Source: an uncultured Bacillota bacterium (GTDB lineage: Bacteria > Bacillota > Clostridia > Lachnospirales > Lachnospiraceae). From it: DNA of 64,000 bases. The position numbers were made by a program, and so were the translations under genes. Below, one piece after another: positions 8,798-60,208 of this stretch; positions within the stretch are counted from its first letter, which is position 1, and every line of letters starts with the position of its first letter. The stretch covers positions 44,482 to 108,481 of the forward strand of contig CASEXH010000010.1 of NCBI GenBank assembly GCA_949291945.1, given 5' to 3'. A model generated the notes under the pieces. The model was not told where the DNA came from and did no database searches. It saw only the letters and a program-made list of their open reading frames with translations.

Positions 8798-8822
8798 ATC
8801 CTGTACATCCCTCCCTCAGCTT

Positions 8823-9245
8823 CTATTTTTCCTCTGCACTGTCCAGGATTTCTATCAGTCCCCTGTCGGCATCCACCAGAATTCTGTCGCCGTCTTTTAC
8901 CTCCTCATAGAAGGCGGGATCCACCCGATCTACCATAGGAATTTCCATGATGATAGCGCTGGATACCAGTACAGTTTCCGGATACTGGATGATCATGGCA
9001 GCCGGAGAATTGTTTTTCTGGTTTAACTGATAAAGTCCGTCTGCCTGTACTACAGAGCTTCCCTTGCCTCCGGGAAAAATCAATACTTTATGGGCTACGG
9101 ATTTTCCTTCCAGATCATGGGCTTTCTCTATAACCTTTCCTGTAGCCGGATCTATGAGATAAAACATGATATTGTCTTTTGACACAACTGCCTCTGCTTC
9201 CGCTCGTCCCTCTGAAATCTTATGACATTGAAATACTTTTCCCAT
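8823..9245 (-). CDS. Aconitase X small (swivel) subunit, DUF126
   Basis: Motifs GRAEAEAVVS, GKSVAHKVLIFPGGKGSS and SAIIMEIPMVD; adjacent to the large subunit. Confidence 0.9.
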   Translation of the reverse strand: MGKVFQCHKISEGRAEAEAVVSKDNIMFYLIDPATGKVIEKAHDLEGKSVAHKVLIFPGGKGSSVVQADGLYQLNQKNNSPAAMIIQYPETVLVSSAIIMEIPMVDRVDPAFYEEVKDGDRILVDADRGLIEILDSAEEK

Positions 9246-9246
9246 C

Positions 9247-10455
9247 TTATTTTACCTCCCCTGTAAGTGCTGCCTGTATACATGTATCAAGGTCCCGTAT
9301 AACAAAATGGATACCTCTCCGCTGAGGATAGTAGGCGCATTTCGGTGATTCTGTGATACCCACCTTTCCTGTAAGATGTCTCCAGCAAGGCTGATCCGGG
9401 CAGCTGTCCGGCACGATAAATCCTCCTGCATCAGTAATGATCTCATCCAGCCCCATCCGGACTGCCATCTCTTTCACATGACTGGAGGTCAGGATCCACA
9501 TTTCTTTTTTCAACGTTTTCCCTTCTACTCGTTCCGCAATATATTTCACTTCTTCCAGAGTAAAATGAGGACAGCCAAACATTGCAAAATCAATTTCCCG
9601 GTTTCCTTCCAGTGAAATTTCTTTCAGGATTTCTTCTTTATCCTCATTGGTGATCACTACTTTTCGTACAGGTTCTTTCCCCCCGAAAGCCGTCTCAAGA
9701 TCCGGTGCTTCCGGAGTATAGCCTACGATATGATACATTCCATAGGCACCTGAAGTATTTAACTGAGCTCCCAGATTTCTCAGAGCCTCTTTTGTAATAG
9801 TTTCCTTTGGAAAACCGGTAAACACCGGAACTCCCTCGCCGATCTTCTTCCCCAGCATACCAATCATATGATAGTCGAAGGGGGTTTTTACATCGGCCTG
9901 TATCTCTACCAGGACAGTTCCTCTTCTGTTTTCGTCCAGAAGCAGCCCGTATTCCGGCACATATCCGGTTATAGCCGCACACAGAGCGCTGTTTGCCCCT
10001 TCCCGGTTGGTCCTGGCCCCCCAGACAGCATTTGCGTAGGGCGTTGCGCTGGATTCTGAAAAAGCGATCACCTCTTTATAATTTGGCACATTTGTATCTA
10101 TGTAGGGCGTACAGTTGTAACTAAGCTGAGCCCCCAGAGCTTTATAGGCATTGTGGGTGCGCTGCATCAAGTCTGCAAATTCCGGTGCGACCATATTTCT
10201 GTTTTTAAAAAATTCCAGACAAAATCCCGGATTCACTGTAGGAGTCACACGACATCTGGCGCCCCCTTCCAGCATTTTTTCTGCAAACCACAGATCTGCT
10301 TCCTGATTTGAAAGTGCAACATGAGCTCTGGTGATAGGCACCATCCGCTCTGCACCGAAGGATTCTCCGATGGCCACCTGGATCTTCATAGCATAGGCAG
10401 TTCCTTTTCCATATTTTCCGTCCAGCATATCCTGCTGATGTTGTGTAAGCTCCAT
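9247..10455 (-). CDS. Aconitase X catalytic (large) subunit, DUF521
   Basis: Motifs TPTVNPG, YNCTPY, AFSESSA, WGARTNREG, ALCAAITG, FGCPH and DSC. Confidence 0.92.
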   Translation of the reverse strand: MELTQHQQDMLDGKYGKGTAYAMKIQVAIGESFGAERMVPITRAHVALSNQEADLWFAEKMLEGGARCRVTPTVNPGFCLEFFKNRNMVAPEFADLMQRTHNAYKALGAQLSYNCTPYIDTNVPNYKEVIAFSESSATPYANAVWGARTNREGANSALCAAITGYVPEYGLLLDENRRGTVLVEIQADVKTPFDYHMIGMLGKKIGEGVPVFTGFPKETITKEALRNLGAQLNTSGAYGMYHIVGYTPEAPDLETAFGGKEPVRKVVITNEDKEEILKEISLEGNREIDFAMFGCPHFTLEEVKYIAERVEGKTLKKEMWILTSSHVKEMAVRMGLDEIITDAGGFIVPDSCPDQPCWRHLTGKVGITESPKCAYYPQRRGIHFVIRDLDTCIQAALTGEVK

Positions 10456-10479
10456 TTGATTACCTCCTGTAAAATTTTT

Positions 10480-10860
10480 CTATAATTTCACAATGGCTCC
10501 TACTTCTATTTTCATACCTCCCCACAGTTCCAGGGCAACGCCGCTTCTGGCCGGAGGGCATTCTGTTCCGAAAAACTCTTCGTAAATTTCATTCATAGCG
10601 TCAAAGTCTTTCATGGTAGACAAAAACACATCGCATTTCACCACATCCTCCATAGAAGCTCCCAGCTCTTCCACAATCAATTTCAGATTGCCAAGGGCTC
10701 TCCTTGTTTCTTCCTGGATGGTTCCATGGATGATTTCTCCCGTTTCAGGATCCAGGGCGATCTGACCCGAAACAAAAGCAAATCCCCCTGCTATAGCTAC
10801 CTCTGCCACCGGACCGCCAAAAACTTTCATTCCTTTAGGGGTAAATACTTCTTTTTTCAT
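10480..10860 (-). CDS. RidA/YjgF/UK114-family protein
   Basis: Motifs FVSGQIALDP, VVKCDVFL, DFDAMNEIY and PPARS. Confidence 0.92.
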   Translation of the reverse strand: MKKEVFTPKGMKVFGGPVAEVAIAGGFAFVSGQIALDPETGEIIHGTIQEETRRALGNLKLIVEELGASMEDVVKCDVFLSTMKDFDAMNEIYEEFFGTECPPARSGVALELWGGMKIEVGAIVKL

Positions 10861-11025
10861 CTTACAAGACTCCTTTCATTTTTTCTGTCAATGTCTTTAC
10901 TATATTTTTATCAGGTTCTTGTCGGAAAACTGTCTGACCGGAAGGATTTTTTATCCTGAGAAAAAGGAAGCAGCCTTTTTCCCAAAAAAAGACTGGTGCA
11001 TAAACTGCATCAGCCTTTTTATTTT

Positions 11026-13908
11026 TTATTCTTCTAATCTTTTCAGCTCTTCTCTCAGGAAATCACTGCCAAGCCTTTTTGCTAGCTTCTCAGAAATTTC
11101 TCTATGTTTTGCCCCCTCTTCTGCATCTCCTGCGGCTTCCAGAACAATTCCGATACACCGCTCTGCTTTCGCCTCTCCCCAGACAGAGCCTACTTTTGCA
11201 AAATATTCTTTAGCTATATATGCATATTGCTCCGCTTTTTCAAACTCTCCCAGATGATACAGAGCAAAGCTCATATCTGAGTAAAAAATCCCTGTCTCTC
11301 CGTATATTTTGTATTCCTCTCCCAGATGGATGGCCTGTTCCAGATATCCGCAGGCCTCCTGCCATTTTTTTTGCCGTATATAGCACAGTCCCATATTGTG
11401 ATAACAAGCAGAAAGCTCCTTTAAATATTTCGCCTTTTTTTCCTCTCTGCCGCCCAGGTAATTAATAGCCTCCTGGTAAAGTTTTTCCGCTTCTGCATAC
11501 TCACCGTTCTTTACCTTGGAAGTTGCCAGATAGCGCAGCAGCATACATTCCTCTTCTATGTGATGATGGGTGCAGTCTTTCATAAATATCATGCAGGTAT
11601 CGATAACATCCTGCATAAAGCCATTCTGTCCGGTCAGATCTCCGTACAAAATCAGCTGCAGATAATTATAAAACATATAGTCTCTGTCCTGCAGTTCTCT
11701 TGCCAGTTCCAGGCTTTTTTCCACATGTTTCTTTCCCTGGCTGCTGTCTGCTACAAACATTTCATATCTTCCCAGCAGATACTCTATGCGCATACGTATG
11801 GGGGCAAGCTCTGGCTTCTCCTCCTGCTGTTCTTTGATTTCCTCTGCCAGAAGTACCAGTTCATCCTCACGGGCATAATAACCGTCTATATTTCCGCTGA
11901 AGACAGCTTTTCTCGCCAGCATAGGATATAGAGCATATGTAATAGTATAAAAAGGTTCCAGGTATTTGACTTTATACTCATATGTTTTATATAAATTTCC
12001 GCACTGTTCATAATGATACAAAACCAGAGAACAGATTTCCAGATCCGGAGTTTCTCTGTATCTTTCTTCATAAAACCGTGCGATATAAGCATGATACATA
12101 TTCCTTTTTTCTTCAGACAGAGATTTGTATACATACTCATGAAGGATCTGATGGCGGAATCCATACCGAATTTCTCCTTTTGACCATTTTTCACAGAGGA
12201 TCTTTTTCTCCAGCAATGGCTCCAGGATCTGCCGCAGCTGTCCGTCTTCCAGGCCGAAAATCTGGTTGATCTCCTGAAGAGACGCCGGAAGAGAAAAAAT
12301 AGACAGAATATCCAGTAGTGTACGCTCCCGTCTGGACAATCTGAGAAGACGGCTTTGGAGCACATTGGAGGTTTTGTCAGTAAAGCCTTCCCAGGCATCC
12401 CCTTCATCAAAAAGCCGCAGAGATTCCATAAAAAACAAAGGATTTCCCTGGGTCTTTTCATATATTTCCCGGGCCAGTACAGGATCTTTCTCCAGGCCGC
12501 TTCCTGACTGGCTGATGATTTCCTGTGTTTCCGCAAAAGTAAAAGGCTTCAGGATGATTTCTTTTAAAAGGCCCCTGCCGATCAGAGGGATCTTGAAATT
12601 TTTTATAGCATCTCCATCCTCTTCTCTGTATGCGGCCATGACCAGAAGATTTCCATGGCCCATACGAAATAAAAGATTACTCATAAGACGTACGCTCATT
12701 GGATCCATCCACTGGATATCGTCAATGAGCAGAAGAATCTTCTTATTCCGGAAATTTTTAGATAAATATCGGAAAACCGACTCTGTTAAAACTTCAAACC
12801 TGGTCATCAGAAAACGAAGATCCGTATCTGTGTGATTCTGAAGTATATCAATGGGGGAGTCTACCGTCAGTCCATTTATTTTGCAGTATTCTGCCACAGC
12901 TTCCATAATGCCGTACCAGGCCATCAAATAGAGCTCTTTTTCTGTCTCGCAGCAGTTCCAGGAAAAGACCAGATAATCTGACTTTTCAAACATCCTGTGG
13001 ATCTGCTCCAGCAGCATACTTTTCCCAATACCCGGCTCACCGGTTATCAGGTAAGATACCTGGCTTCTTTCATCACTTTCTTCATTAGCAAAGACCTTGA
13101 AATAAATATCATAGAGGATATCTGTCCTTCCGAAAAAATAATCTTTTGTCTTTAGATCAGGAAGTTTCAGACTCTTCTTCATGCCTGAAATCTTCTCAAA
13201 AAGATTTTTTGTCTCTTCTTCCGGCTCTTCTCCCACTTCTTTTTTCAAAAACTCTCTCAGTTTCTGATAAAGCTCTACAGCAACCGAATATCTGCCGGCT
13301 TCTGCCATTTTCTTCATAATGCAGCGGTAGATCTCCTCGTCCATCCATTCCTGCTGCAAGAATATCCGTCCGCTTTCTTCCAGAAATTCCGGTTCTTCTC
13401 CTGGTTTCAACTCCATGATCTTCAGCTGCAGAGCTTTTATATAATCCCGTCTGCGCCTGAGTCTTTCGCCCTCTGCCCAATCCTCAAATTCATAGCAGTT
13501 TTTCACATAAAAAAACTGCAGAAATTCTCCTCTGACTTTTTCCAGCAAGTTTTCTCTTGTATCCTGTTCAATATCAATGCTGATATCTCTTTCCCTGTTC
13601 AATGCGATCCTGCTGTTTCCCTCTATAATAAGAATATCCTGTCCCAAAACCTTTCGTATATTATAAAGAGCATCTCTTAAGTTCTTTCTTGCAGTAGTTT
13701 CGCTGGAATCTGCCCATAAAACTCCAATAGCCTGGGTCCTGGTTATCTGATTATTTACACACAGGTAATAGAACAGGCCTTCAACCTTTTGATAGGGAAA
13801 ACTAACCTCCTCGCCTTTATGCCGAACCGCAGGAGTACCCATAAGCCAGACTTCTACGTCATGTTGCCATTTCTGTTCTCCTCTCTGAGATGTGTATTCT
13901 GTATTCAT
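11026..13908 (-). CDS. Large SARP/STAND-type activator (wHTH-BTAD, AAA ATPase, TPR sensor)
   Basis: N-terminal LRDALYNIRKVLG and BTAD region, Walker A GEPGIGKS, Walker B LLIDDIQW, GNPLF motif and C-terminal TPR-like helices. Confidence 0.85.
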   Translation of the reverse strand: MNTEYTSQRGEQKWQHDVEVWLMGTPAVRHKGEEVSFPYQKVEGLFYYLCVNNQITRTQAIGVLWADSSETTARKNLRDALYNIRKVLGQDILIIEGNSRIALNRERDISIDIEQDTRENLLEKVRGEFLQFFYVKNCYEFEDWAEGERLRRRRDYIKALQLKIMELKPGEEPEFLEESGRIFLQQEWMDEEIYRCIMKKMAEAGRYSVAVELYQKLREFLKKEVGEEPEEETKNLFEKISGMKKSLKLPDLKTKDYFFGRTDILYDIYFKVFANEESDERSQVSYLITGEPGIGKSMLLEQIHRMFEKSDYLVFSWNCCETEKELYLMAWYGIMEAVAEYCKINGLTVDSPIDILQNHTDTDLRFLMTRFEVLTESVFRYLSKNFRNKKILLLIDDIQWMDPMSVRLMSNLLFRMGHGNLLVMAAYREEDGDAIKNFKIPLIGRGLLKEIILKPFTFAETQEIISQSGSGLEKDPVLAREIYEKTQGNPLFFMESLRLFDEGDAWEGFTDKTSNVLQSRLLRLSRRERTLLDILSIFSLPASLQEINQIFGLEDGQLRQILEPLLEKKILCEKWSKGEIRYGFRHQILHEYVYKSLSEEKRNMYHAYIARFYEERYRETPDLEICSLVLYHYEQCGNLYKTYEYKVKYLEPFYTITYALYPMLARKAVFSGNIDGYYAREDELVLLAEEIKEQQEEKPELAPIRMRIEYLLGRYEMFVADSSQGKKHVEKSLELARELQDRDYMFYNYLQLILYGDLTGQNGFMQDVIDTCMIFMKDCTHHHIEEECMLLRYLATSKVKNGEYAEAEKLYQEAINYLGGREEKKAKYLKELSACYHNMGLCYIRQKKWQEACGYLEQAIHLGEEYKIYGETGIFYSDMSFALYHLGEFEKAEQYAYIAKEYFAKVGSVWGEAKAERCIGIVLEAAGDAEEGAKHREISEKLAKRLGSDFLREELKRLEE

Positions 13909-14066
13909 GCTTTCACCCTGACTTCCCGCTGCAATCTCTAATACATTCTCGTACTTTCATATGTAAAATACTATATCATAAAATAAGTACCTCTGCAAAG
14001 TCTAAAAAGCGTCGGAAACTTATTCCTCAGTTTCCATATATCCCTTTGATTTCGCCCAAAATCCTC

Positions 14067-14117
14067 TTGACCTGTATACCCCTATGGGTATATTATACAT
14101 ATACCCCCATATGTATA
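14067..14117 (+). promoter_or_regulatory. Promoter with two tandem palindromes (CsoR-type operator)
   Basis: TTGACC -35 at 14067. Palindrome TATACCC-CTAT-GGGTATA at 14075-14092 and TATACATAT-ACCCCC-ATATGTATA at 14094-14117. Confidence 0.75.
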
Positions 14118-14138
14118 TTTTAAGAAAGAAGGAGCGCT

Positions 14139-16010
14139 ATGATTTCATCTATGAAAGACTTGTTTCTCAATGAAACAAAAAGAAGCATTTTATTTCTTGT
14201 GATCTCCGGTCTCTCTCTGCTGATCAGTTTTCTGGAGCCGGAAGGTATTCTTTTTAACACAGCCTGGATCGCCATTCTTCTCTGCGGGATCCCAATCATC
14301 AAAGAAGCCATAGAAGGCCTTGTCACACGGTTTGACATTAAAGCAGACGTATTAGTATCTCTGGCTCTGATCGCTTCAGTGATCATTGGAGAGATCTTTG
14401 CTGCCGGCGAAGTGGCTTTTATCATGCAGATCGGTTCTCTTTTAGAAGAACTTACTGTAGCCAAGGCAAGGGCTGGTATTGAAAAGCTGGTACACCTTAC
14501 CCCTTTAACTGCACGAAAGATCCTAAACGGCAAAGAAATCATCCTGCCGGCTAAAGAGGTGGCTGTCAATGATGTACTCCGGGTTCTTCCGGGAGAGACT
14601 ATCCCTGTAGACGGGGTAATCCTATCCGGAGAGACCTCCGTGGATCAGGCCGTTATGACAGGAGAATCTCTTCCGGTGGACAAAGGTCCGGGAGACGAGG
14701 TATCCAGCGGAACGGTCAACCAGTTCGGTTCTTTTGATATGAAAGCTTCCAGAGTAGGGGAAGACAGCTCTATCTGGCGGATGATCCGTCTGGTCCAGTC
14801 TGCTGATGCCGGAAAGGCCAAGATCGTAAGGCTGGCAGACCGGTGGGCCACCTGGATCGTGGTCATCGCTCTGACTGCCGCAGCTCTTACCTGGCTGATA
14901 TCCGGCCAGATCATCCGGGCTGTGACCATACTGGTAGTCTTCTGTCCCTGTGCCCTGGTACTGGCCACTCCCACCGCCATCATGGCGGCCATCGGAAATG
15001 CTACAAAGCATGGTTTCCTGGTAAGAGAAGGCGACGCTCTGGAGCGCCTGGCTCAGGTCTCTCAAGTTGCCTTTGACAAGACAGGAACCCTCACTTATGG
15101 AAAACCTCAGGTAGCGGCTGTAGAAAGTTTCTCACCGGATATTTCCTCTGAAAAACTATACCGTCTTGCCGCCGAAGCTGAGCTTCGTTCAGAACACCCC
15201 CTTGGCAAAGCAGTAGTCCAGGGATACAAGCAGTCTTATCCTGAAACCGCACCTGAAGCTCCCCAATCCTTTTCCATGCTCCCGGGCAAAGGCGTAAAAG
15301 CCATGGCAGATCACGTGGAGGTGCTGGCAGGCAATCCCTCTCTCCTGGAGGAGAATCAGATTTCCATACCTCAAAAAGCCCTGGATTCTGCAGCAGGCTA
15401 TATACAAAAGGGCTGCACTCTTATTTATCTGGGAATTGAAAAAAGGTTCGGAGGATTTGCGGCCCTTTGGGATACCCTGAGGGAAACTGCTCCTGAAATG
15501 ATCAGCAGGCTGAAACAGCTTGGCCTCACTCCCGTACTTATGACCGGGGATCATGAAAATGCTGCCAGGACCATTGCTGATCAGCTGCATATTGATAAAG
15601 TCCATGCCGGCTGTCTCCCGGAGGATAAGCTCAATTACATAGCCTCTTCCCAGGGAAAAAAAGAAATGGTATGTATGATCGGAGATGGCATCAACGATGC
15701 TCCTGCACTGAAAAAAGCCCATGTGAGCATTGCCATGGGCGGAGTGGGAAGTGATATTGCTGTAGACGCAGCCGACATTGCTCTGGTAAATGATGACATC
15801 AAGGAGCTTCCACATCTGGTTTCTCTGTCCAGAAAGATGATGACTACGATCAAATGCAATCTGGCATTCTCCATGACTTTGAATTTTGCAGCCATCATAC
15901 TGGCGATTACGGGGATCCTGAACCCCGTAGTAGGCGCTCTCGTCCACAATGCAGGATCTGTGCTGGTGATCATAAACTCCAGCCTGCTGCTGACCTATAG
16001 GAAAAAATAA
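14139..16010 (+). CDS. Heavy-metal-translocating P1B-type ATPase
   Basis: Motifs TGES, CPC, DKTGT, SEHP and GDGINDAP; no N-terminal metal-binding domain. Confidence 0.95.
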   Translation: MISSMKDLFLNETKRSILFLVISGLSLLISFLEPEGILFNTAWIAILLCGIPIIKEAIEGLVTRFDIKADVLVSLALIASVIIGEIFAAGEVAFIMQIGSLLEELTVAKARAGIEKLVHLTPLTARKILNGKEIILPAKEVAVNDVLRVLPGETIPVDGVILSGETSVDQAVMTGESLPVDKGPGDEVSSGTVNQFGSFDMKASRVGEDSSIWRMIRLVQSADAGKAKIVRLADRWATWIVVIALTAAALTWLISGQIIRAVTILVVFCPCALVLATPTAIMAAIGNATKHGFLVREGDALERLAQVSQVAFDKTGTLTYGKPQVAAVESFSPDISSEKLYRLAAEAELRSEHPLGKAVVQGYKQSYPETAPEAPQSFSMLPGKGVKAMADHVEVLAGNPSLLEENQISIPQKALDSAAGYIQKGCTLIYLGIEKRFGGFAALWDTLRETAPEMISRLKQLGLTPVLMTGDHENAARTIADQLHIDKVHAGCLPEDKLNYIASSQGKKEMVCMIGDGINDAPALKKAHVSIAMGGVGSDIAVDAADIALVNDDIKELPHLVSLSRKMMTTIKCNLAFSMTLNFAAIILAITGILNPVVGALVHNAGSVLVIINSSLLLTYRKK

Positions 16011-44343: not shown

Positions 44344-45107
44344 ATTTACTTACCATTTTTTCCATAGAACTGAAAAAAATACGCAGGACCCATATTGTCT
44401 GGGTCCTGCTGATCCCGCTGATTTTATTATGGATTCCTGCTGTATTAAACGTTGACTCTAACTTTTCCAACGCCGCCGGACTTTCCCCGGAAATGAATTT
44501 TTTCTTTCAGATGTATCTGGGCATGTCCTGGTTTCTGTATCCCGCCAGCCTGGTAGTAATCACCGTCATGCTGAACCAGCTGGAGCGGACCAATCAGGGT
44601 ATCTTGAAAATGCTGTCTCTGCCGGTATCTGCTGCTGAGCTGTGTCTGGGCAAGTTTCTGGTCCTGCTGCTTTTGTCCGCTTTTCAGATGGTTTGCATGG
44701 CAGCCCTGTATTATCCTGCGGCAGCTATAGCTTCCCACAGCGCCGGCTATGACTTTATCCTTCCTCTGTCCACAGTGCTGTATGAGACTCTGGTCATCTA
44801 TATCAGCTCCATACCTATGGCGTCCTTTTACTGGCTTATTGCCGTATGTATCCGGACTTCTGTATTTTCTGTAGGGATCGGCCTGGCAACCATTGTGCCC
44901 ACCGTGCTTTTCATCAACTCAAAGCTCTGGTTTGCCTACCCTATGTGCTATCCCTATTACATCATGGCCCAGCTGCTGGAACAGCCTCAGACACAGGTGT
45001 ATAACCTGTCTATAGACCTGTGTCCCCTGGTTCCCGTAGCTGTGGCTGTAACTCTTGTGTGCCTGATCCTATCCTGCCTGTGTTTCGGCAGATCAGAAAG
45101 GAGGTAA
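44340..45107 (+). CDS. Lantibiotic-immunity permease (LanG-like)
   Basis: IELKKIRRT, ~6 TMs and W.AYP.CYP; coupled to the upstream gene. Confidence 0.8.
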   Translation: MNLLTIFSIELKKIRRTHIVWVLLIPLILLWIPAVLNVDSNFSNAAGLSPEMNFFFQMYLGMSWFLYPASLVVITVMLNQLERTNQGILKMLSLPVSAAELCLGKFLVLLLLSAFQMVCMAALYYPAAAIASHSAGYDFILPLSTVLYETLVIYISSIPMASFYWLIAVCIRTSVFSVGIGLATIVPTVLFINSKLWFAYPMCYPYYIMAQLLEQPQTQVYNLSIDLCPLVPVAVAVTLVCLILSCLCFGRSERR

Positions 45108-53080: not shown

Positions 53081-53755
53081 TTGAAAAAATATTTATTTAT
53101 ACTGAAGAACTGTCCTTTTTTCTCGGGAATGTCAGAAGAAGAGATTCTTTCTATCCTGAATTGTATAGACGCAAAAGTACTCTGCAAAGAAGCCAATGAA
53201 TATATATTACGTGCCGGAGACAGCACCACGGCCATGGGCCTTGTACTGAAAGGTTCTGTTCTGGTAGTACAGGAAGATCTGTGGGGACATCGAAATATCA
53301 TGTCTAAAATAGAAGAAGGTGATTTTTTCGCAGAGCCTTACGCTGCCACTCCCGGCTCTGTTCTGAACATCAATGTAATCGCCTGCAGCCACTGTGAGAT
53401 CATGTTGCTGAACATCAACCGGCTCCTGTCCGTATGCCCTACCGCCTGCGAGCACCACAATAAACTGATCCGGAACCTGGTGGCTGTGCTGGCAGGTAAG
53501 GTATTGCTCTTTAACGAAAAAATCACCCATATGAGTAAGAGGACTACCAGAGAAAAGCTTTTATCCTATCTTTCCTCAGAGTCTATAAAGCAGGGAAAAC
53601 TTTCCTTTGATATTCCCTATGACAGACAACAGCTGGCGGACTATCTCTGCGTGGAAAGAGCCGCCATGTCTGTAGAACTGTCAAAGCTGCAGAAAGCGGG
53701 GCTGCTGAAAACAAAGAGAAATCATTTTGATCTTTATGAGATACTCGGTTCTTAA
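53081..53755 (+). CDS. Crp/Fnr-family regulator
   Basis: cNMP-binding fold and HTH QQLADYLCVERAAMSVELSKL. TTG start after AGGAG; divergent from the hcp operon. Confidence 0.92.
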   Translation: MKKYLFILKNCPFFSGMSEEEILSILNCIDAKVLCKEANEYILRAGDSTTAMGLVLKGSVLVVQEDLWGHRNIMSKIEEGDFFAEPYAATPGSVLNINVIACSHCEIMLLNINRLLSVCPTACEHHNKLIRNLVAVLAGKVLLFNEKITHMSKRTTREKLLSYLSSESIKQGKLSFDIPYDRQQLADYLCVERAAMSVELSKLQKAGLLKTKRNHFDLYEILGS

Positions 53756-53769
53756 AAGCCGCTGATTTT

Positions 53770-53840
53770 CAAGGGCAATTCTTTCACTTCCGTCCCATTC
53801 ACGGGAACAGGAAGTTGAAGATAATTTTCCTGATACTTTC
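53770..53840 (-). pseudogene. C-terminal scrap of a large serine recombinase
   Basis: Minus strand reads SIRKIIFNF, then after a 1-bp shift (P)VPVNGTEVKELPL, matching the remembered C-terminus of rumA-targeting recombinases. Confidence 0.6.
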
Positions 53841-53880
53841 TCATAATAAAAACATGAGAGCGTTTATCTCCATCATTATA

Positions 53881-53918
53881 TTGAAATCTCCGTCATTTTA
53901 GAGTAAAATGACGGAGAT
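53881..53918 (+). promoter_or_regulatory. fic promoter overlapped by a perfect 14-bp inverted repeat
   Basis: TTGAAA, 17 bp, TAAAAT; IR ATCTCCGTCATTTT-AGAGT-AAAATGACGGAGAT at 53886-53918. Confidence 0.7.
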
Positions 53919-53941
53919 AAATCGGAAATGAGGTAGATAAT

Positions 53942-54988
53942 ATGCGGTTATTTGATTATAAAAAGGAACCGAAAAAACTTTTGACACCGGAGATCGTACA
54001 GATGGTTTCCATCATCCATGAACACAAAGGGAAACAAGAATTATTTCTGGAGGCCAATATTGATGAATTGAAAACCCTTCTTGAAGTTGCATTGATTCAA
54101 AGTACGGGTGCTTCCAACCGTATCGAAGGTATTTATACAACGGATAAGCGACTGGAGGAACTGGTAAGCCAGAAGGCAGAACCTAGAAACCGTTCCGAAC
54201 AAGAAATTGCAGGCTATCGGGAAGTGCTTGCTACCATTCACGAAAGTTACGAATACATTGTTCCCCGCCCCAACCTGATTTTACAGCTACATCGGGATTT
54301 GTATTCTTACTCTCAGAAAGCTACTGGCGGGAGTTATAAAAATGCGGATAATGTCATTGCTGAAACAGATGCAGAAGGACATCAAAAGGCACGATTCGTT
54401 CCGGTTCCGGCATTTCAGACTGCAGAAGCGATGGAGGAACTTTGCAGGGAATTCTGGGAAGCCTGGGAAGCTGACCATATTGATAAACTTCTTCTGATTC
54501 CCATGTTTATTCTAGATTTTCTCTGTATCCATCCCTTTAATGACGGGAATGGACGCATGAGCCGCCTGCTGACCCTTTTGTTGTTCTATAAAGCCGGATA
54601 TATTGTCGGGAAGTACATCAGTATGGAAATGCTGATTGAAAAAACTAAAGAAACCTATTATGAAGCGTTGCAGGCAAGTTCAGCCGGCTGGCATGAAAAT
54701 GAGAATAGCTACGAACCTTTTGTGAAATATTATCTTGGCATTACGCTGAAAGCATACAATGAATTTGAAAGTCGTGTGGAGCATTTGAAAAACCGCACAC
54801 TTTCCAAGCCAGAGCGAATCAGAGCTATGATCGACCAGAAGGTTGGAAAAATCACAAAAAAGGAAATCCTGGATGCCTGCCCTGACATCAGCAAAACGAC
54901 GGTAGAACGTACTCTGACGGATTTAGTTAAGAGTGGTTACATTGCCAAAGTAGGTTCGGGACCGGCTACCGGATATGTCAGAATCTAA
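53942..54988 (+). CDS. Fic-family protein with a C-terminal wHTH
   Basis: Fic motif HPFNDGNGRMSR, N-terminal inhibitory-type SNRIEG and a C-terminal HTH. Confidence 0.93.
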   Translation: MRLFDYKKEPKKLLTPEIVQMVSIIHEHKGKQELFLEANIDELKTLLEVALIQSTGASNRIEGIYTTDKRLEELVSQKAEPRNRSEQEIAGYREVLATIHESYEYIVPRPNLILQLHRDLYSYSQKATGGSYKNADNVIAETDAEGHQKARFVPVPAFQTAEAMEELCREFWEAWEADHIDKLLLIPMFILDFLCIHPFNDGNGRMSRLLTLLLFYKAGYIVGKYISMEMLIEKTKETYYEALQASSAGWHENENSYEPFVKYYLGITLKAYNEFESRVEHLKNRTLSKPERIRAMIDQKVGKITKKEILDACPDISKTTVERTLTDLVKSGYIAKVGSGPATGYVRI

Positions 54989-55170
54989 GTTATAGAATTT
55001 TATCTATGAGGAAGATAATTCCCGTTACATCGCAGTCATACATTTACATTTCGGTGTATGGCTGCTTTTATTTTGCCGGGAAAGGAACAGATGCAAATAA
55101 AATTAGCATTGTCTGAAAAGCCATCAGCAGCACAGAGTTTTCCAGAACTCATTTCCGATTGAGATGGAAA

Positions 55171-55329
55171 CTATTCTTCTGTTGAAGTGTCTACCAAGTC
55201 CAATCCGACACTATTCTCTGTTTCAACGGATTTATCATTTGCATAATCAGTAGAATCAGAACCGCAAGCAGACAAAGTTCCCACTAATATCGCAACAAAA
55301 AGTGCCGTTTGTACCAATCATTTTATCAT
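55171..55329 (-). pseudogene. Lipoprotein pseudogene
   Basis: RBS GAGAGG, then MIK*LVQTALFVAILVGTLSACGSDSTD...STEE*: lipobox LSAC with an in-frame TGA at codon 4. Confidence 0.6.
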
Positions 55330-55349
55330 TATCCACCTCTCAAAATGAT

Positions 55350-56669
55350 TTATTCCTGCGAAACCGGCGGCACTTCACCAAATAAAATATTAAGTTCATC
55401 AATAGTTCCAGCTTTTTCCCACTGTGCCATACCATGTTTCCATACCAAGCTATCAGCGGTAAGCTGTCCTGCGGTTGCCATCTGTGCCAACACAGAAATG
55501 TTAAACGGTCCAGTCGCTTGTCCGTTGACCGCTACATGATATGCTACAGTAGGAATTGGAGGAGGTATAGCACCGGGCGTTGTCTGCTGATTGATGCCAC
55601 TCATCATATTGTTCATAGCACCCGCAATGTTCTGGCCCACGGCGCCGCCAACGGCCATACTTGCCATCATAGCTGCCATATTAAAGCCCTCTCCACTGCC
55701 ACTCAGATTTACATCACCCGCACCATTTGCCCCCATCTGTCCAAAAGCCTGTGCGCCAGCAACACCGACCTCTGCCTGTTTTTCAACTTGGAAAGCACCA
55801 ATATTGGCGGTTTGTGTTTGCTTGTGCATAGCATACTGGCCTTCCTCACGCTGGATACGAAGGCGCTCCACATAATCCTGTGTCTCAGCCTCGATTCTTG
55901 CTGCCGCAATGTCCTTTGTAACCGCCATAAGCTGACGGTAACCTTCACTGGATTTGTCAATCTCGATGGCACCAATATCCACCCCTGACACCAAAACACC
56001 GAAGGTTTCTTTCAGTCGTTCGCTGATATCATACTCCACAACATCATTAATTTGTGCTGTTTTGGTTTCAATCTGAATGACCGGAATGTTGTTGGCGGCG
56101 GGAGCATTGGCGACCGCATCTTTTACATATCGATATACTGTATCTCGAATCTGCTTTTGAAAATCATTCAGATCAAATGTATTTAGCCGGTTAAGCTTGA
56201 TGAACTCACGGTAGTCCCTAATTTGAAAACTAATAGTACCTCTGACAGCAAGAGGAACACCAAAATCGGAAAACCTAGGATCATATACATCAAAGAATGG
56301 TACACCAAATTTCACTTGAATGATGCGGGTAAGGTTGATAAAGTAAACCTCAGCCTGAAATGGTGTTCCCCCTTCATATGCAAGTCCAATAATGCTAGAC
56401 AGAACAGGGAGATTGGCTGTTTTGATGTTCTGATCAAAGGGGCCTTCGATGAAATCCTGCATCACACCATCTTTCTGTTTGTAAACAAAAACTGCAACTT
56501 CTCCGTCTTTAACCCGCAGGGAAGACCCCCAGCGAATCGAGTTTTCTCGCTGTCTGCTTCCTTCCTGAACGCCAGATGGATGCCACTTCCAAATCAGATA
56601 TGATGGTTCATCACAACGTATCTCGTCCATCAAACCGCCCTTGCGGTTATTTTTATCAAACAATCCCAT
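55350..56669 (-). CDS. SPFH/band-7-like (YdjI-type) protein with a C-terminal GYF_2 (DUF4339) domain
   Basis: GSSLRVKDGEVAVFV, FQAEVYFINL, VPLAVRGTISF; C-terminal YHVAVNGQATGPF...LVWKHGMAQWEKA. ATG at 56669 after AGGAGG. Confidence 0.8.
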   Translation of the reverse strand: MGLFDKNNRKGGLMDEIRCDEPSYLIWKWHPSGVQEGSRQRENSIRWGSSLRVKDGEVAVFVYKQKDGVMQDFIEGPFDQNIKTANLPVLSSIIGLAYEGGTPFQAEVYFINLTRIIQVKFGVPFFDVYDPRFSDFGVPLAVRGTISFQIRDYREFIKLNRLNTFDLNDFQKQIRDTVYRYVKDAVANAPAANNIPVIQIETKTAQINDVVEYDISERLKETFGVLVSGVDIGAIEIDKSSEGYRQLMAVTKDIAAARIEAETQDYVERLRIQREEGQYAMHKQTQTANIGAFQVEKQAEVGVAGAQAFGQMGANGAGDVNLSGSGEGFNMAAMMASMAVGGAVGQNIAGAMNNMMSGINQQTTPGAIPPPIPTVAYHVAVNGQATGPFNISVLAQMATAGQLTADSLVWKHGMAQWEKAGTIDELNILFGEVPPVSQE

Positions 56670-56682
56670 ATCGGAACTCCTC

Positions 56683-57789
56683 CTATTCTGTTGCACTACT
56701 ACTGTCTGGTTCTTCTCCATTCAATATACGATTGAATTCATTAATGTTTTCCTTAGCAGCATCTAATCCAGATTGCACACCCTCTTTAAAGCCCTTGCCA
56801 ACCCCATTATCGTTATCTTCACTATCAGACGGTTCATCATTTGCTTTATCAATATCTGGAGTTGGCGTGAACTCTATATCTACCCCATTTTTCCCAGCTT
56901 CCTCAAGTATCTTTTCCACCCAGTATTCCCGTTCGATATCCCATTTTCGCTCCATCTCCACATCATAACGCTGATAGTCTATAGAATCAGCAATCCTCAA
57001 GGCATGCGCATATTCACCATGATCCAATGCTTGTCGAACATCTAGAACAATGTTATCTAATCGCTCAATTTCTTTTTCTTCCTTTTTTGGTTCAGTTATC
57101 GCAAGTGAAACAAGAATGACAATCCATACTACAGGTACCCAGCCAAGCATGAGTACCCACTTAATAATGCCTTTTTTCTTTGATTTTTTGATCTCTACGT
57201 TACAACTATCATAAAGCGCCTGAATTTCCGTAAATACGTTATCTGCGGAGTAACTTCTTTTGGCCTTTTCATATACCTGCTGAACTTTTGAAAACCAAGC
57301 GGCGTTTACTTCTTTTTCACTCTTAGATACATCGGTGTTAGCAGAGTCATATGTCCGCATATTCATGTTTGAGGTTGCAAGAATCATAAATTCAAGCATA
57401 TCTTCTTTCGTGCTAGGAACGGAAAAACTTTTTATTAAACTAATTTTTTGCTCATCTGTTTTGGATATCCTTTGCTGTGCTTCTGCTGCTGCCCAAATGC
57501 CACGAGGTTTTTCATATTCCCGCCTTGATTCAATAGCCTCAAGTTTCAAAGCAAATTCCTTTACCACACTGGATGCTTTTGCTCCTCGCAATTCATAACC
57601 ACATGCGGGACAATTTAATTCAAATGCCTTTAGGACTTCACCGCAATTAGGACATTTGTACAGTTTTCCTGCAAACTCCTGTTTTCGTTGCATATATCCT
57701 GTATTTTCATCTGTCACTGGGCAACCACACTTCTGACAGAATTTTGCGTCTTCGAGAAGTTCTTGTCCGCAGTTAGTACAAAACGCCAC
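56683..57789 (-). CDS. Double zinc-ribbon membrane protein
   Basis: CTNCG...FCQKCG and CPNCG...CPACG motifs, one TM (WVLMLGWVPVVWIVILVSLAIT) and an acidic C-terminal domain. Confidence 0.85.
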   Translation of the reverse strand: MAFCTNCGQELLEDAKFCQKCGCPVTDENTGYMQRKQEFAGKLYKCPNCGEVLKAFELNCPACGYELRGAKASSVVKEFALKLEAIESRREYEKPRGIWAAAEAQQRISKTDEQKISLIKSFSVPSTKEDMLEFMILATSNMNMRTYDSANTDVSKSEKEVNAAWFSKVQQVYEKAKRSYSADNVFTEIQALYDSCNVEIKKSKKKGIIKWVLMLGWVPVVWIVILVSLAITEPKKEEKEIERLDNIVLDVRQALDHGEYAHALRIADSIDYQRYDVEMERKWDIEREYWVEKILEEAGKNGVDIEFTPTPDIDKANDEPSDSEDNDNGVGKGFKEGVQSGLDAAKENINEFNRILNGEEPDSSSATE

Positions 57790-57808
57790 CGATATTCCTC
57801 CATCACCA

Positions 57809-58312
57809 TTACAGTTTATTTTTACCTATACAGTCCAAGATTACATCATATAGTTCTTTCATTCGCTGATATGAACACTCACCTAAGTTCCTTAGCCCAT
57901 AAAACTGTCGGCATTGGAGTGGCTCAATCTCAAACCTCGAATGGAAATCACTACTTGTTCCTACATAACACGGTTGAACAGCATCCTGCGGAAAAATCCT
58001 ATCATTTTTGAATTGTCGTTGGTCTGCGGTTATATCCACAATATATAAATCATCAACAACAAGCCACGAATGACCGAAAATATTCTCAAAACCATCATAT
58101 CGGTATGTACCATACACACATCTACAGCTAATGCTTTGCTCTGAAACATTATCCATCAAGTATTGTGCCAACAACTCAGGAGTATCTCCACAACAAGCAT
58201 TTGGGAAATCCGAAAACGGTTGTTTCTGGAATAGTCGGTTCTCATGCGCTATTTCTATTCCACGACGAAAACGAGAAGCCAGATATTTAATTTCCCTAAT
58301 CTCCATATCCAT
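57809..58312 (-). CDS. Hypothetical protein with a papain/transglutaminase-like Cys-His-Asp pattern
   Basis: FPNACCGDTPELLAQYL...GHSWLVVDDLYIVDITADQ. Confidence 0.65.
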   Translation of the reverse strand: MDMEIREIKYLASRFRRGIEIAHENRLFQKQPFSDFPNACCGDTPELLAQYLMDNVSEQSISCRCVYGTYRYDGFENIFGHSWLVVDDLYIVDITADQRQFKNDRIFPQDAVQPCYVGTSSDFHSRFEIEPLQCRQFYGLRNLGECSYQRMKELYDVILDCIGKNKL

Positions 58313-58318
58313 TCCCCT

Positions 58319-58531
58319 TTAATCGCTATCTGATTTTACAGCATCGCAAATATCTCCGATGTTACAATCCAAATATTCACAAATACGCAACAAAACCGAA
58401 AGAGCCACTTCCTCATTTCTGCGCAGCTTCGTCATGGTTCCTGTAGCGATATTCAAATCTTTTCGGAGTGTAGCCGGAGAAATTTCATTCTCAATTAAGC
58501 GTATCCATAACTTTTTATAACTTATTTTCAT
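58319..58531 (-). CDS. Cro/C1-type (Xre, HTH_26) transcriptional regulator
   Basis: MKISYKKLW...LRKDLNIATGTMTKLRRNEEV...LLRICEYLDCNIGDI. Confidence 0.9.
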   Translation of the reverse strand: MKISYKKLWIRLIENEISPATLRKDLNIATGTMTKLRRNEEVALSVLLRICEYLDCNIGDICDAVKSDSD

Positions 58532-58738
58532 AGCACACTTTTTCTAAATCCACATTTTGACTCTCTCAAGATCTATTATATGTATTATCGCTTTAGAAAT
58601 CAAGATAATTCAATAATTAATAAGCATTTTTTCGCAACTTCTTGCGAATATTCAAAAAGAAAACGCCCATCCGAAAAAGATTTCTCGCAGATGAGCGTAT
58701 TATTAGTATTTCCCAAGAGAACTGAACAGAGATGAGCC

Positions 58739-58915
58739 TTAAATCATACCAAAATACTTCAGTGCTTCTGTAATTGCTGTTTCCTTTTCCGGCGGGCATT
58801 TCGGCTGTCTGGCGTTCTTAGACTTCGACCTGTTGTAGTTCTTGCGCTCAATAATGCCATATTTCTGTTTAATCTGGGCGATGTAAAGAGAGGAAACCTT
58901 TAAGCCGGTCTGCTA
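58739..58915 (-). pseudogene. Element-derived rlmD C-terminal extension cut off by a premature TAG
   Basis: The in-frame continuation after the TAG at 58915-58913 reads QTGLKVSSLYIAQIKQKYGIIERKNYNRSKSKNARQPKCPPEKETAITEALKYFGMI*. Confidence 0.75.
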
Positions 58916-60208
58916 CAACACATGTTCTTTGATCTGACCGTATGTGGCGCCCTTCTGGAATCCGGACATATCCATATCTTCCAGTGAGAACTCCACACGC
59001 ACTTTCTTCGAGTCAATTTCTCCCTTGGAAAGCAAGACAACTGTCTCTATCCCCTCCGTGTGAGGAAACATATCCACTCCCTGAATCAGTTTTACCTGCC
59101 ACCCTTCTTTTATGAGCAATTCCAGATCTCTTTTCTGGGTTTCCGGATTGCAGGACACGTATACGATCTTTTCCGGCTTCATGGCGGACACTGCCTGCAA
59201 AAATTCCGGCGTGCTCCCGGCCCGGGGCGGATCCATAAATACTACGTCAACCCTTTCTCCCCTGGCAGCCATCTTTCCTATAAAATCCGTGGCGTCGGCG
59301 CAGAGAAACCGGGCATTCTGGATCCCGTTTTCTTTTGCATTTTCCCAGGCGCATTTCACAGCGCTGTTGTTCCGTTCCACCCCCATCACCTTTTTAGCCA
59401 TGGATGCTGCAGACAGACCGATGGTTCCTACCCCGCAGTAGGCGTCTAACACTGTCTGGCTTTTATCCAGGCCCGCCGCCTCTATGGCAGTTTTATAAAG
59501 GATTTCTGTCTGCACCGGGTTGATCTGGTAAAAGCTGGATCCGGAAATCCGAAACTGAATGCCACAGAGAGTATCCCGGATGTAACCCTTGCCATATAGG
59601 ATCTTTTCCTTATATCCCAGAACGGCGCTGGTAGACCGGTCATTGATATTCTGGACAAGGGTAGCGATCTTGGGGCACAGCTGCCGCACCCTTTTTCCAA
59701 AGGCTTTTGCTCCGGGAAGGACCGGAGAAGCTGTTACCAGTACGGCCAGGACCTGATCCTCCGCAAGACTATGGCGGACCAGGATATGGCGGACCAGTCC
59801 TGTCTTTTTATCTTCATCATAGACCGGATACTTAAATTCCCGTACAGCCTTTCGCACAGCTTCTATGGCCTCATCCAGAGCCGGCTGATGTAAGAGACAG
59901 GTCTCTACAGGAATCACCCAATGGGATCCCTGGGCATAGATTCCGCTTTTCACCTGTCTGCCTTGAGTATAAGTAAAGGTAGAGATTGCTTTATTCCGGT
60001 AATGCCATGGATTTTCCATGCCGATAATAGGCTGGGGCTTTCCGAAGTTTCCCAGGAGTTTCTTTATTTTTTTCTGTTTTTTCCGAAGCTGCTCCTCATA
60101 GGGCAGGGTAAGCATGGGACAGCCTCCGCAGCCCTGCTCTTGCAGAAGACAGGAAAACTGCTGCTTTTCTGTATCTGCCTTTTTCATGTATTTATCTTTA
60201 ATTTCCAA
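58913..60208 (-). CDS. rlmD: 23S rRNA (uracil-5)-methyltransferase RlmD/RumA family, with a chimeric 3' end
   Basis: CGGCPM, SFYQIN, DAYCGVG, DPPRAG, YVSCNPET and VDMFPHT...ETV. Confidence 0.93.
   Translation of the reverse strand: MEIKDKYMKKADTEKQQFSCLLQEQGCGGCPMLTLPYEEQLRKKQKKIKKLLGNFGKPQPIIGMENPWHYRNKAISTFTYTQGRQVKSGIYAQGSHWVIPVETCLLHQPALDEAIEAVRKAVREFKYPVYDEDKKTGLVRHILVRHSLAEDQVLAVLVTASPVLPGAKAFGKRVRQLCPKIATLVQNINDRSTSAVLGYKEKILYGKGYIRDTLCGIQFRISGSSFYQINPVQTEILYKTAIEAAGLDKSQTVLDAYCGVGTIGLSAASMAKKVMGVERNNSAVKCAWENAKENGIQNARFLCADATDFIGKMAARGERVDVVFMDPPRAGSTPEFLQAVSAMKPEKIVYVSCNPETQKRDLELLIKEGWQVKLIQGVDMFPHTEGIETVVLLSKGEIDSKKVRVEFSLEDMDMSGFQKGATYGQIKEHVL

Follow-up and report, generated by a model that had tools for sequence, protein, structure and literature searches.

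A conserved Xre, zinc-ribbon and SPFH-GYF gene module of gut mobile elements, with a stranded copy behind rlmD in a Blautia genome

Positions 55171 to 58531 of a 64,000-nucleotide stretch of DNA from an uncultured member of the Lachnospiraceae (positions 44,482 to 108,481 of contig CASEXH010000010.1, assembly GCA_949291945.1; hereafter the window, meaning the whole stretch) hold a small operon, the core of which is a conserved module of three genes: an Xre-type regulator with a helix-turn-helix (HTH) domain of the HTH_26 family, a zinc-ribbon membrane protein, and a soluble SPFH protein that ends in a GYF domain (SPFH-GYF). The domains and the principle of pairing them are already known, whereas the abundant module itself is unstudied. 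Among known systems the module most resembles the YdjG/YdjI (SamG/SamI) pair of Bacillus subtilis, and by analogy it would form an Xre-controlled, membrane-anchored SPFH scaffold, the role of which would most likely lie in handling membrane or envelope stress, a reading that we hold at about even strength. The copy in the window lies, in a Blautia species, on the remnant of an integrative element that had entered rlmD at its last codons. A preliminary description of the same DNA had taken five genes in this interval for a mobile membrane-surveillance system, directed against phages or envelope stress, with an enzyme as its effector and a lipoprotein among its members; parts of that picture hold, and others have to be given up.

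The module is recognised by its recurrence. A survey of metagenomes provided 80 loci with a relative of the SPFH-GYF protein at 70–88% identity, which form 66 clusters at 97% nucleotide identity; gene order was counted in the 56 loci with at least 2.5 kb of upstream sequence. The zinc-ribbon protein is encoded directly upstream of SPFH-GYF in 55 of these 56 loci, the HTH_26 gene is likewise present in 55, and both occur together in 54. The window itself has five open reading frames (ORFs), all on the minus strand and separated by intergenic gaps of 6, 19, 13 and 20 nt, which confirms the coordinates of the five co-directional genes, with gaps of 6–20 bp, that had been reported earlier. Conservation of gene order had been proposed as a check of the cassette, and four of its five genes do co-occur elsewhere with their order kept.

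The SPFH-GYF gene (55350..56669, minus strand) encodes a soluble scaffold protein of 439 aa with Pfam matches to Band_7_1 (7e-23) and GYF_2 (9e-18). A longer ORF, from 56720, runs into the upstream gene and overlaps it; the start is the ATG at 56669, which follows a GGAGG and matches the N-terminus MGLFDK of all homologues. Measured on the long ORF, the Band_7_1 (PF13421) match has 81.7 bits (E 7.4e-23; cut-off 24) and covers residues 58–255. The SPFH domain is followed by a long coiled-coil helix, a Gly/Ala/Met-rich region, a PPPIP motif and the C-terminal GYF_2 domain, and the PPPxP motifs that bracket the GYF domain do not vary. The protein has no membrane anchor, as no stretch of 19 residues exceeds a hydropathy of 1.6, and the maximum, 1.17, falls in the Gly/Ala/Met-rich region. 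In its AlphaFold2 (AF2) model, the predicted local distance difference test score (pLDDT) is about 80 for the SPFH part and low within the Gly/Ala/Met-rich stretch, residues 302–373. The model matches prohibitin, HflK/C, stomatin, erlin, flotillin and QmcA with E values of 1e-8 to 1e-5 over 280–340 columns, and in its C-terminal domain it can be aligned with the GYF domain solved for GltJ.

The SPFH-GYF protein is among the commonest uncharacterised mobile-element proteins of gut metagenomes. It is represented by more than 8000 clusters at 90% identity, the best 120 of which are all at least 84% identical, and one exact sequence recurs in 279 index blocks; the best relatives, from metagenome-assembled genomes of Evtepia, Acutalibacter and Ruminococcus, are labelled only 'SPFH domain-containing protein'. 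A search of PHROGs gave no match for the protein. The combination of SPFH and GYF domains was listed by Balaji and Aravind in 2007, and bacterial GYF domains often have flanking proline-rich stretches as well as adjacent membrane proteins (PMC2034487); a bacterial GYF domain has been found to bind a proline-rich peptide (PMC11135422). On one contig of the same species as the window (L017, 1953–3210), the SPFH-GYF gene is split into ORFs of 179 aa and 251 aa, which could be real decay or an assembly error.

The membrane partner in the window (56683..57789, minus strand; 368 aa) is a putative anchor or sensor with two N-terminal zinc ribbons (Pfam DZR, Zn_Ribbon_1 and Zn_ribbon_3). Translation starts at a GTG, 7 nt after a GGAGG, and four CxxC motifs lie within the first 70 residues; hydropathy and charge analysis places one transmembrane (TM) helix at residues 207–232, followed by an acidic outer tail of 136 aa. 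The N-terminus is expected to face the cytoplasm because KKSKKKG precedes the TM helix. Among 51 distinct upstream partners, the first 190 residues or so are conserved; they take in the two ribbons as well as a helical segment marked by the motif KISLIxxFxxPxTKEDxLEFMILAxSN. Beyond residue 190 or thereabouts the partners are hypervariable, with 0–5 predicted TM helices, total lengths of 210–716 aa and varying copy number. Proline-rich ligands for a GYF domain were found by a regular-expression scan in only one of the 51. A third zinc-ribbon protein, with DUF6591/DUF4839, is encoded after the SPFH gene in 22 of 62 loci, and the extra zinc-ribbon proteins that some loci carry (with TM2 or DUF6591/DUF4839) include none that is YdjH-like. 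The split between a constant scaffold and its exchangeable partners makes the module a tractable system for the study of soluble SPFH recruitment and sensing.

The operon opens with the Xre-type regulator (58319..58531, minus strand; 70 aa; Pfam HTH_26, E 1.4e-17), the product of which resembles VanU at a score below the cut-off (NCBIfam VanU, 67.5 bits against 150) and belongs to a 90% identity cluster of 2517 members. The inverted repeat that had been pointed out upstream of the cassette is real and no chance match. It is a 7-4-7 palindrome, TTCGCAA-CTTC-TTGCGAA (58631..58648, no strand), exact in the window; as TTCGCAA-N4-TTGCGAA, with no more than two mismatches, it recurs in 61 of 65 related loci, again upstream of the HTH gene, and its columns are 90–99% conserved. 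A promoter-like site, TTGATT-17-TATAAT (58575..58603, minus strand), with 10 of 12 consensus matches, would drive the operon; across loci the -35 and -10 columns are conserved as TTGACA-17-TATAAT, 27 bp downstream of the palindrome, and the palindrome together with this pair is the best-conserved part of the intergenic region. The palindrome is a candidate operator for the HTH_26 protein. That it might be a terminator was considered and rejected: on the transcribed strand it is not followed by a T-run, and upstream of the promoter the whole repeat is preserved as one unit. The ribosome-binding site of the HTH gene (within 58532–58560) reads GAAAAAG in the window versus GAGGAGG in related loci, a degradation that may reduce expression of the regulator in this lineage.

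The parallel with YdjG/YdjI that had been drawn from the zinc-ribbon and SPFH proteins is borne out: here, as in the PspA-YdjGHI (SamGHI) system of B. subtilis, a soluble Band_7_1 protein is encoded right after a transmembrane protein with N-terminal zinc ribbons, a likeness of domains, topology and gene adjacency (the latter in the 55 of 56 loci). In B. subtilis, the zinc-ribbon protein YdjG and YdjH bring soluble YdjI to the membrane, where YdjI positions PspA (PMC8581546, PMC9239133), and SamG-SamH has been described as a stress-sensor complex with an output that SamI restrains (bioRxiv 10.64898/2026.02.06.704340). SPFH-GYF resembles YdjI in having no anchor (PMC8581546), whereas flotillins, HflK/C and stomatin typically have one at the N-terminus. 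The two systems differ in the C-terminal domain, which is GYF_2 with PPPxP motifs here and a zinc finger in YdjI, and in their control, by an Xre regulator and palindrome here and by a sigma-W promoter in the Bacillus operon. In addition, the partners of the module are hypervariable and often duplicated, and the module travels on mobile elements.

Between the regulator and the zinc-ribbon gene, the window operon encodes a cytoplasmic protein (minus strand) of 167 aa (57809..58312), or of 165 aa if translation begins at the second ATG, at 58306, which is the start used by its relatives; both a signal peptide and a TM segment are absent. The preliminary description had called it a papain-like Cys-His-Asp enzyme and the effector of the system. 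Across 25 sequences, with identities as low as 23%, its residues C41, H81, D93, D97 and Q98 never vary; they fall in the family motifs FPNACCGD, GHSWL and IVDITADQ. The 167-aa sequence is not on record by exact look-up; the protein has no match in Pfam, NCBIfam or PADLOC and no sequence match in the PDB, and a search of PDB sequences with two profiles of the family likewise gave nothing significant. The AF2 model is confident (pLDDT 90.4) and yields weak Foldseek leads, the best PDB match being the catalytic domain of SseI (E 0.026, probability 0.91, TM-score 0.31), followed by vasohibin, protein glutaminase, NTAQ1 and PeiP, all of them Cys-His-Asp enzymes of the papain/transglutaminase type; a Foldseek search of viral structures returned uncharacterised proteins only, none significant. 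Transglut_core3 is matched weakly by 16 of 29 relatives (best 4.5e-5, below the cut-off), and for one distant family member (L020:8986-9459) the Transglut_core score of 26.9 bits exceeds the gathering cut-off of 23. With the transglutaminase-like superfamily (Transglut_core, Transglut_core3) the protein shares the order Cys, His, Asp and the 12 residues from His to Asp, whereas the signature FPNACCGD ... GHSWL ... IVDITADQ is peculiar to this family. Because of these weak profile matches, and because the Foldseek leads are all Cys-His-Asp enzymes, the protein can be read, with moderate confidence, as a divergent transglutaminase-like cysteine peptidase of a family that has no Pfam model.

This family is sizeable and lies inside a known superfamily. 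Close homologues form 59 clusters at 90% identity, nearly all metagenomic, and a profile search of 50% identity representatives found 1635 clusters at E<=1e-3 and 447 at E<=1e-10, almost all of them stand-alone proteins of about 150–165 aa; in PHROGs the only match is phrog_26734, of unknown function. The gene lies within the operon in 10 of the surveyed loci, equal to 8 clusters or about 12%, and these copies come from diverged branches of the family. Three loci (L056, L057, L114) have it between the HTH and zinc-ribbon genes, and seven (L041, L058, L060, L061, L066, L094, L111) directly after the SPFH gene. The protein is best regarded as a recurrent optional accessory, because it accompanies about 12% of modules, in two positions, and also occurs without the module; for the same reasons it is unlikely to be the effector of the system. 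Of the earlier assignment, then, the invariant Cys-His-Asp set and a fold that looks transglutaminase- or papain-like remain, and the central place of the enzyme does not. That it might be an obligate partner was rejected, as relatives of about 40% identity lead other rlmD-inserted elements and another branch of the family sits, without the module, in a prophage-like region. One such element (L021–L030, about 8800–16000), at the same rlmD site or behind the recombinase gene of another element, leads with a Cys-His-Asp relative of about 40% identity, followed by a MecA-like penicillin-binding protein (MecA_N/PBP_dimer/Transpeptidase) and three DUF6070 proteins.

Two further kinds of known system inform a model of the module. 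The SPFH cage pairs (HflK/C-FtsH, QmcA-YbbJ/NfeD and stomatin-STOPP) align with SPFH-GYF over the SPFH domain and the long helix, have a membrane protein as operon partner, and can include a peptidase in the set; STOPP, the operon partner of stomatin, cleaves stomatin. They differ in that the SPFH protein here is unanchored, its partner is a zinc-ribbon protein and not NfeD, and the peptidase is cytoplasmic, of the Cys-His-Asp type and optional, instead of a membrane serine protease or an AAA protease. GltJ, from the gliding machinery of Myxococcus, has the GYF domain that is the closest solved relative of GYF_2 here (PDB 7z3c); in GltJ, a zinc ribbon and the GYF domain cooperate at the cytoplasmic face of the membrane, and the latter binds a proline-rich peptide (PMC11135422). 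In the module, by contrast, zinc ribbons and GYF are placed on two proteins, and neither MglA nor motility genes are linked to it.

Set against the observed anatomy, conservation and mobile-element history of the module, its mechanism can be sketched by analogy. The HTH protein would bind the palindrome and set expression of the operon. Through its conserved N-terminal part in the cytoplasm, the zinc-ribbon protein would dock the anchorless SPFH-GYF at the inner face of the membrane, where SPFH-GYF could oligomerise into an SPFH ring or cage, perhaps aided by binding of GYF domains to the conserved PPPxP motifs that flank them. The variable outer part of the partner would determine what is sensed or where the scaffold assembles, and the Cys-His-Asp protein, where present, might act as a partner peptidase that processes the scaffold, the anchor or the repressor, as in other pairings of SPFH proteins with proteases. 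The module as a whole would thus sense and buffer membrane or envelope stress, spread by mobile elements as a self-contained unit. If this is true, the gene set would amount to a YdjG/YdjI membrane-stress module in transportable form, in which a constant scaffold is combined with membrane partners that can be swapped.

Several observations weigh against this stress-scaffold interpretation. Neither the window operon nor the gene tables of related loci contain a pspA gene (PspA_IM30), and a YdjH-like gene is lacking too, the window operon having a single membrane protein. The evidence that the accessory is a peptidase consists of weak matches to profiles and folds; Pfam does not match the window protein, and its best Foldseek E value is 0.026. 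The copy in the window may be decaying, as discussed below (dead element, weak HTH ribosome-binding site, stop codon in the rlmD tail, SPFH split in L017). Lastly, that the module is strongly associated with mobile elements, and that its surface-exposed partners are hypervariable, suits a function in conflict at least as well as housekeeping relief of stress.

The genomic contexts of the module are diverse. It is found on elements with Mob_Pre, primase and serine-recombinase genes, inserted in rlmD or stacked behind the recombinase gene of another element; next to a tyrosine integrase; beside IS110, TnpV and AAA_21+RloB genes; and, as in the window, in settings without a mobility gene, some of which look chromosomal. 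At two loci (L061, 8300–14416, and L066) it is carried by a compact element of about 6 kb that adjoins a MatE gene and consists of HTH, zinc-ribbon, SPFH-GYF and Cys-His-Asp genes together with two small ORFs and a DUF4368-containing serine recombinase; the module is thus its sole cargo. On a phage-like contig with a terminase nuclease domain, a connector and MazG (L124, 4560–6612; also L038), zinc-ribbon and SPFH-GYF genes occur without an HTH gene, and the SPFH-GYF protein of this clade is about 62% identical to that of the window. Phages as the main source of the module were rejected, given 3 matches in IMG/VR and a single one among 50,697 GenBank phage records. A distant counterpart in Bacteroides finegoldii (L127, NZ_OY725907.1 55383-68579) has 27% identity and the same Band_7_1+GYF_2 architecture; its operon has an HTH_3/HTH_26 gene upstream, a zinc-ribbon/TPR gene downstream and also a YidD-domain protein, and it is flanked by obgE, adk, hpt, dinB and pgeF. 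The record is labelled 'plasmid 5' and, given the surrounding housekeeping genes, may be chromosomal sequence. Because this counterpart lies among housekeeping genes, the trio is older than its association with the elements described here and not confined to them.

These contexts bear on the idea that the module is a conflict system of mobile elements, serving phage defence, abortive infection, or the exclusion of superinfecting phages or of conjugative entry. Detection of an invader at the envelope would fall to the variable outer parts of the zinc-ribbon proteins, and the response to the SPFH-GYF cage, with the peptidase where there is one. The module is nearly always carried by integrative elements, where it follows the attachment site directly and stands under a small Xre gene; it can be the sole cargo of a 6 kb serine-recombinase element, adjoins AAA_21+RloB genes and IS110 at one locus, and as a zinc-ribbon and SPFH-GYF pair occurs on a phage-like contig. 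A conserved scaffold with hypervariable, surface-exposed and often multi-copy partners fits the idea as well, and the pspA-ydjGHI operon is reportedly induced by phage SPP1, as cited in PMC11153139. Yet PADLOC-DB 2.0, expected beforehand to reveal no known defence system, indeed matched none of the five window proteins and no component of the L010, L001, L026 and L060 variants; the sole match around the cassette is the neighbouring Fic gene (SoFic). The literature searched links no SPFH protein of this kind to defence, the module has no recognisable toxic effector, with the peptidase missing from about 88% of copies, and its rarity in phage collections and the housekeeping neighbourhood of the Bacteroides counterpart count against it as well. 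Nothing specific was found for the anti-phage role that had been suggested, and a function in conflict, although the main rival reading, is in our judgement unlikely. The same low likelihood attaches to its more elaborate version, a new envelope-based conflict system of gut Firmicutes elements with exchangeable zinc-ribbon sensors, an SPFH cage as common executor and an optional peptidase. If defence or exclusion were true, a class based on a membrane scaffold would be added to bacterial immunity.

The position of the regulator invites another explanation, in which the module is the control circuit of the element itself: an envelope-signal relay would couple the state of the membrane, or contact with the mating apparatus of a helper element, to the Xre repressor, with the Cys-His-Asp peptidase as an anti-repressor protease (compare ImmR/ImmA) that controls excision or mobilisation. 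The attachment site is followed first by the HTH gene and, in the type seen in the window, then directly by the peptidase gene; the operator-like palindrome is conserved, as is the module, highly so, within the Mob_Pre/primase/serine-recombinase family of elements, and SamGH of B. subtilis is described as a signalling stress sensor with a transcriptional output (bioRxiv 10.64898/2026.02.06.704340). This explanation is very unlikely, however, since the module also occurs on unrelated backbones or without any backbone, since the peptidase is usually absent and, where present, mostly lies after the SPFH gene and not beside the HTH gene, and since distant relatives of the peptidase lead other elements without an adjacent HTH gene.

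The host of the window is a Blautia species, as its housekeeping proteins share 90% identity clusters with chicken-gut Candidatus Blautia species. Comparison by blastn with a relative in which the site is empty (L120) shows synteny from 64000 down to 59034 and then again from 53851; this break, together with the flanks shared with empty-site relatives, identifies 53852..59034 (no strand) as an insertion of 5.2 kb. In the empty-site relatives (L120–L123, Blautia) the gene order is GntR-ApbA-rlmD(389 aa)-[75 aa + DUF4258]-Crp-Fer4-Hcp, which the window flanks match; rlmD ends at 389 aa there, as in the majority of members of its 90% cluster. The segment contains the five minus-strand ORFs and one Fic gene on the opposite strand. 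No recombinase, relaxase or primase is encoded in 53852–59034 or elsewhere downstream in the window, whereas intact relatives carry on with sigma/HTH genes, a DnaG-type primase, DUF5906, Mob_Pre and a large serine recombinase. The island is consequently a stranded, immobile remnant, and the word mobile, as used for the cassette before, does not apply to this copy, which rides on a dead element.

The left boundary lies inside rlmD, where the element supplies a C-terminal tail (58743..59047, minus strand) that is joined in frame at E-T-V-V; similarity to L001–L004 begins at 59047, and the junction sits within GAGACAGTTGT (59037–59047). The tail is a conserved coding sequence of about 100 aa (...ETVVLLSK...TGLKVSSLYIAQVKQKYGIIERENYN...KCPPEKEAAITEALKYFGMI). 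An equivalent tail follows rlmD in L004, L010, L011 and L015, and in L001 and L014 it is joined at E-T-V-V to serine-recombinase genes; because it is thus fused to other genes too, it belongs to the element. The view that the cassette stands behind an element-derived rlmD tail was accordingly correct, the insertion at the 3' end of rlmD being of mobile-element origin. Fusion of the tail, among L001, L004 and L010–L015, either to rlmD or to the serine-recombinase gene of another element suggests that elements are stacked in tandem. rumA is a known target of ICEs (integrative and conjugative elements) and IMEs (integrative and mobilisable elements) of streptococci (PMC5357655, PMC4701971). The rumA/rlmD IMEs of Firmicutes with large serine recombinases are similar in that the last rlmD codons are hit and the element provides a replacement C-terminus, and different in that the window copy has lost all mobility genes. 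We found no account, in the literature searched, of this element family of Clostridia or of the SPFH module that it carries.

The loss of mobility genes raises the further proposal, compatible with the other readings, that the cassette in the window is a non-functional relic whose ORFs are intact only since decay is recent. An in-frame TAG at 58913–58915, where other copies have CAG or GAG, breaks the tail in the window and is shared with a contig of the same species (L016). Nonsense codons both in this tail and in the lipobox ORF described below are present in three independent assemblies, and the absent recombinase, relaxase and primase, the weakened HTH ribosome-binding site and the split SPFH gene of L017 point the same way. 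On the other hand, the four module ORFs are full length and, save for the HTH gene, have good ribosome-binding sites, the promoter and palindrome are intact, and copies without a backbone persist in other lineages too. We consider a relic quite unlikely.

The fifth gene of the operon as described earlier, a lipoprotein gene, does not belong to the system. It is a short ORF (55171..55329, minus strand; identified by translation and tblastn) of 52 codons, reading MIK-stop-LVQTALFVAILVGTLSAC..., with a lipobox L-S-A-C and an in-frame TGA at codon 4 (55318–55320). In a tblastn search of 126 loci, homologues were found only on the same-species contigs L016 and L017, which share the TGA, and the lipoprotein was rejected as a component because no related locus outside the species has it; it is a species-specific ORF, broken by a stop codon. 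Beyond it, on the plus strand, lies a gene for a Fic-domain protein with a C-terminal winged helix (53942..54988; Pfam Fic 1.4e-15, PADLOC SoFic 9.5e-39), SoFic-like although far under the NCBIfam SoFic cut-off. None of the 80 surveyed metagenome loci has a Fic match, and Fic accompanies the module in this species only.

Some minor features of the surroundings complete the picture. No Rfam family matches within 53700–59200 at E values up to 0.1. Just upstream of the Fic gene and near the right junction, at 53886–53918, there is a perfect inverted repeat of 15 nt with a loop of 3 nt (ATCTCCGTCATTTTA / TAAAATGACGGAGAT), and a similar repeat is present in the empty-site relative L120. The interval from rlmD to Crp/Fer4/Hcp is a variable hotspot among related genomes. 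In L120 the 3' end of rlmD occurs twice, the second copy being displaced and accompanied by a 75-aa/DUF4258 gene pair (9157–9470); L126 (3545–10311) has AAA_21+RloB genes, TnpV, IS110 and, next to Crp, a further copy of the module.

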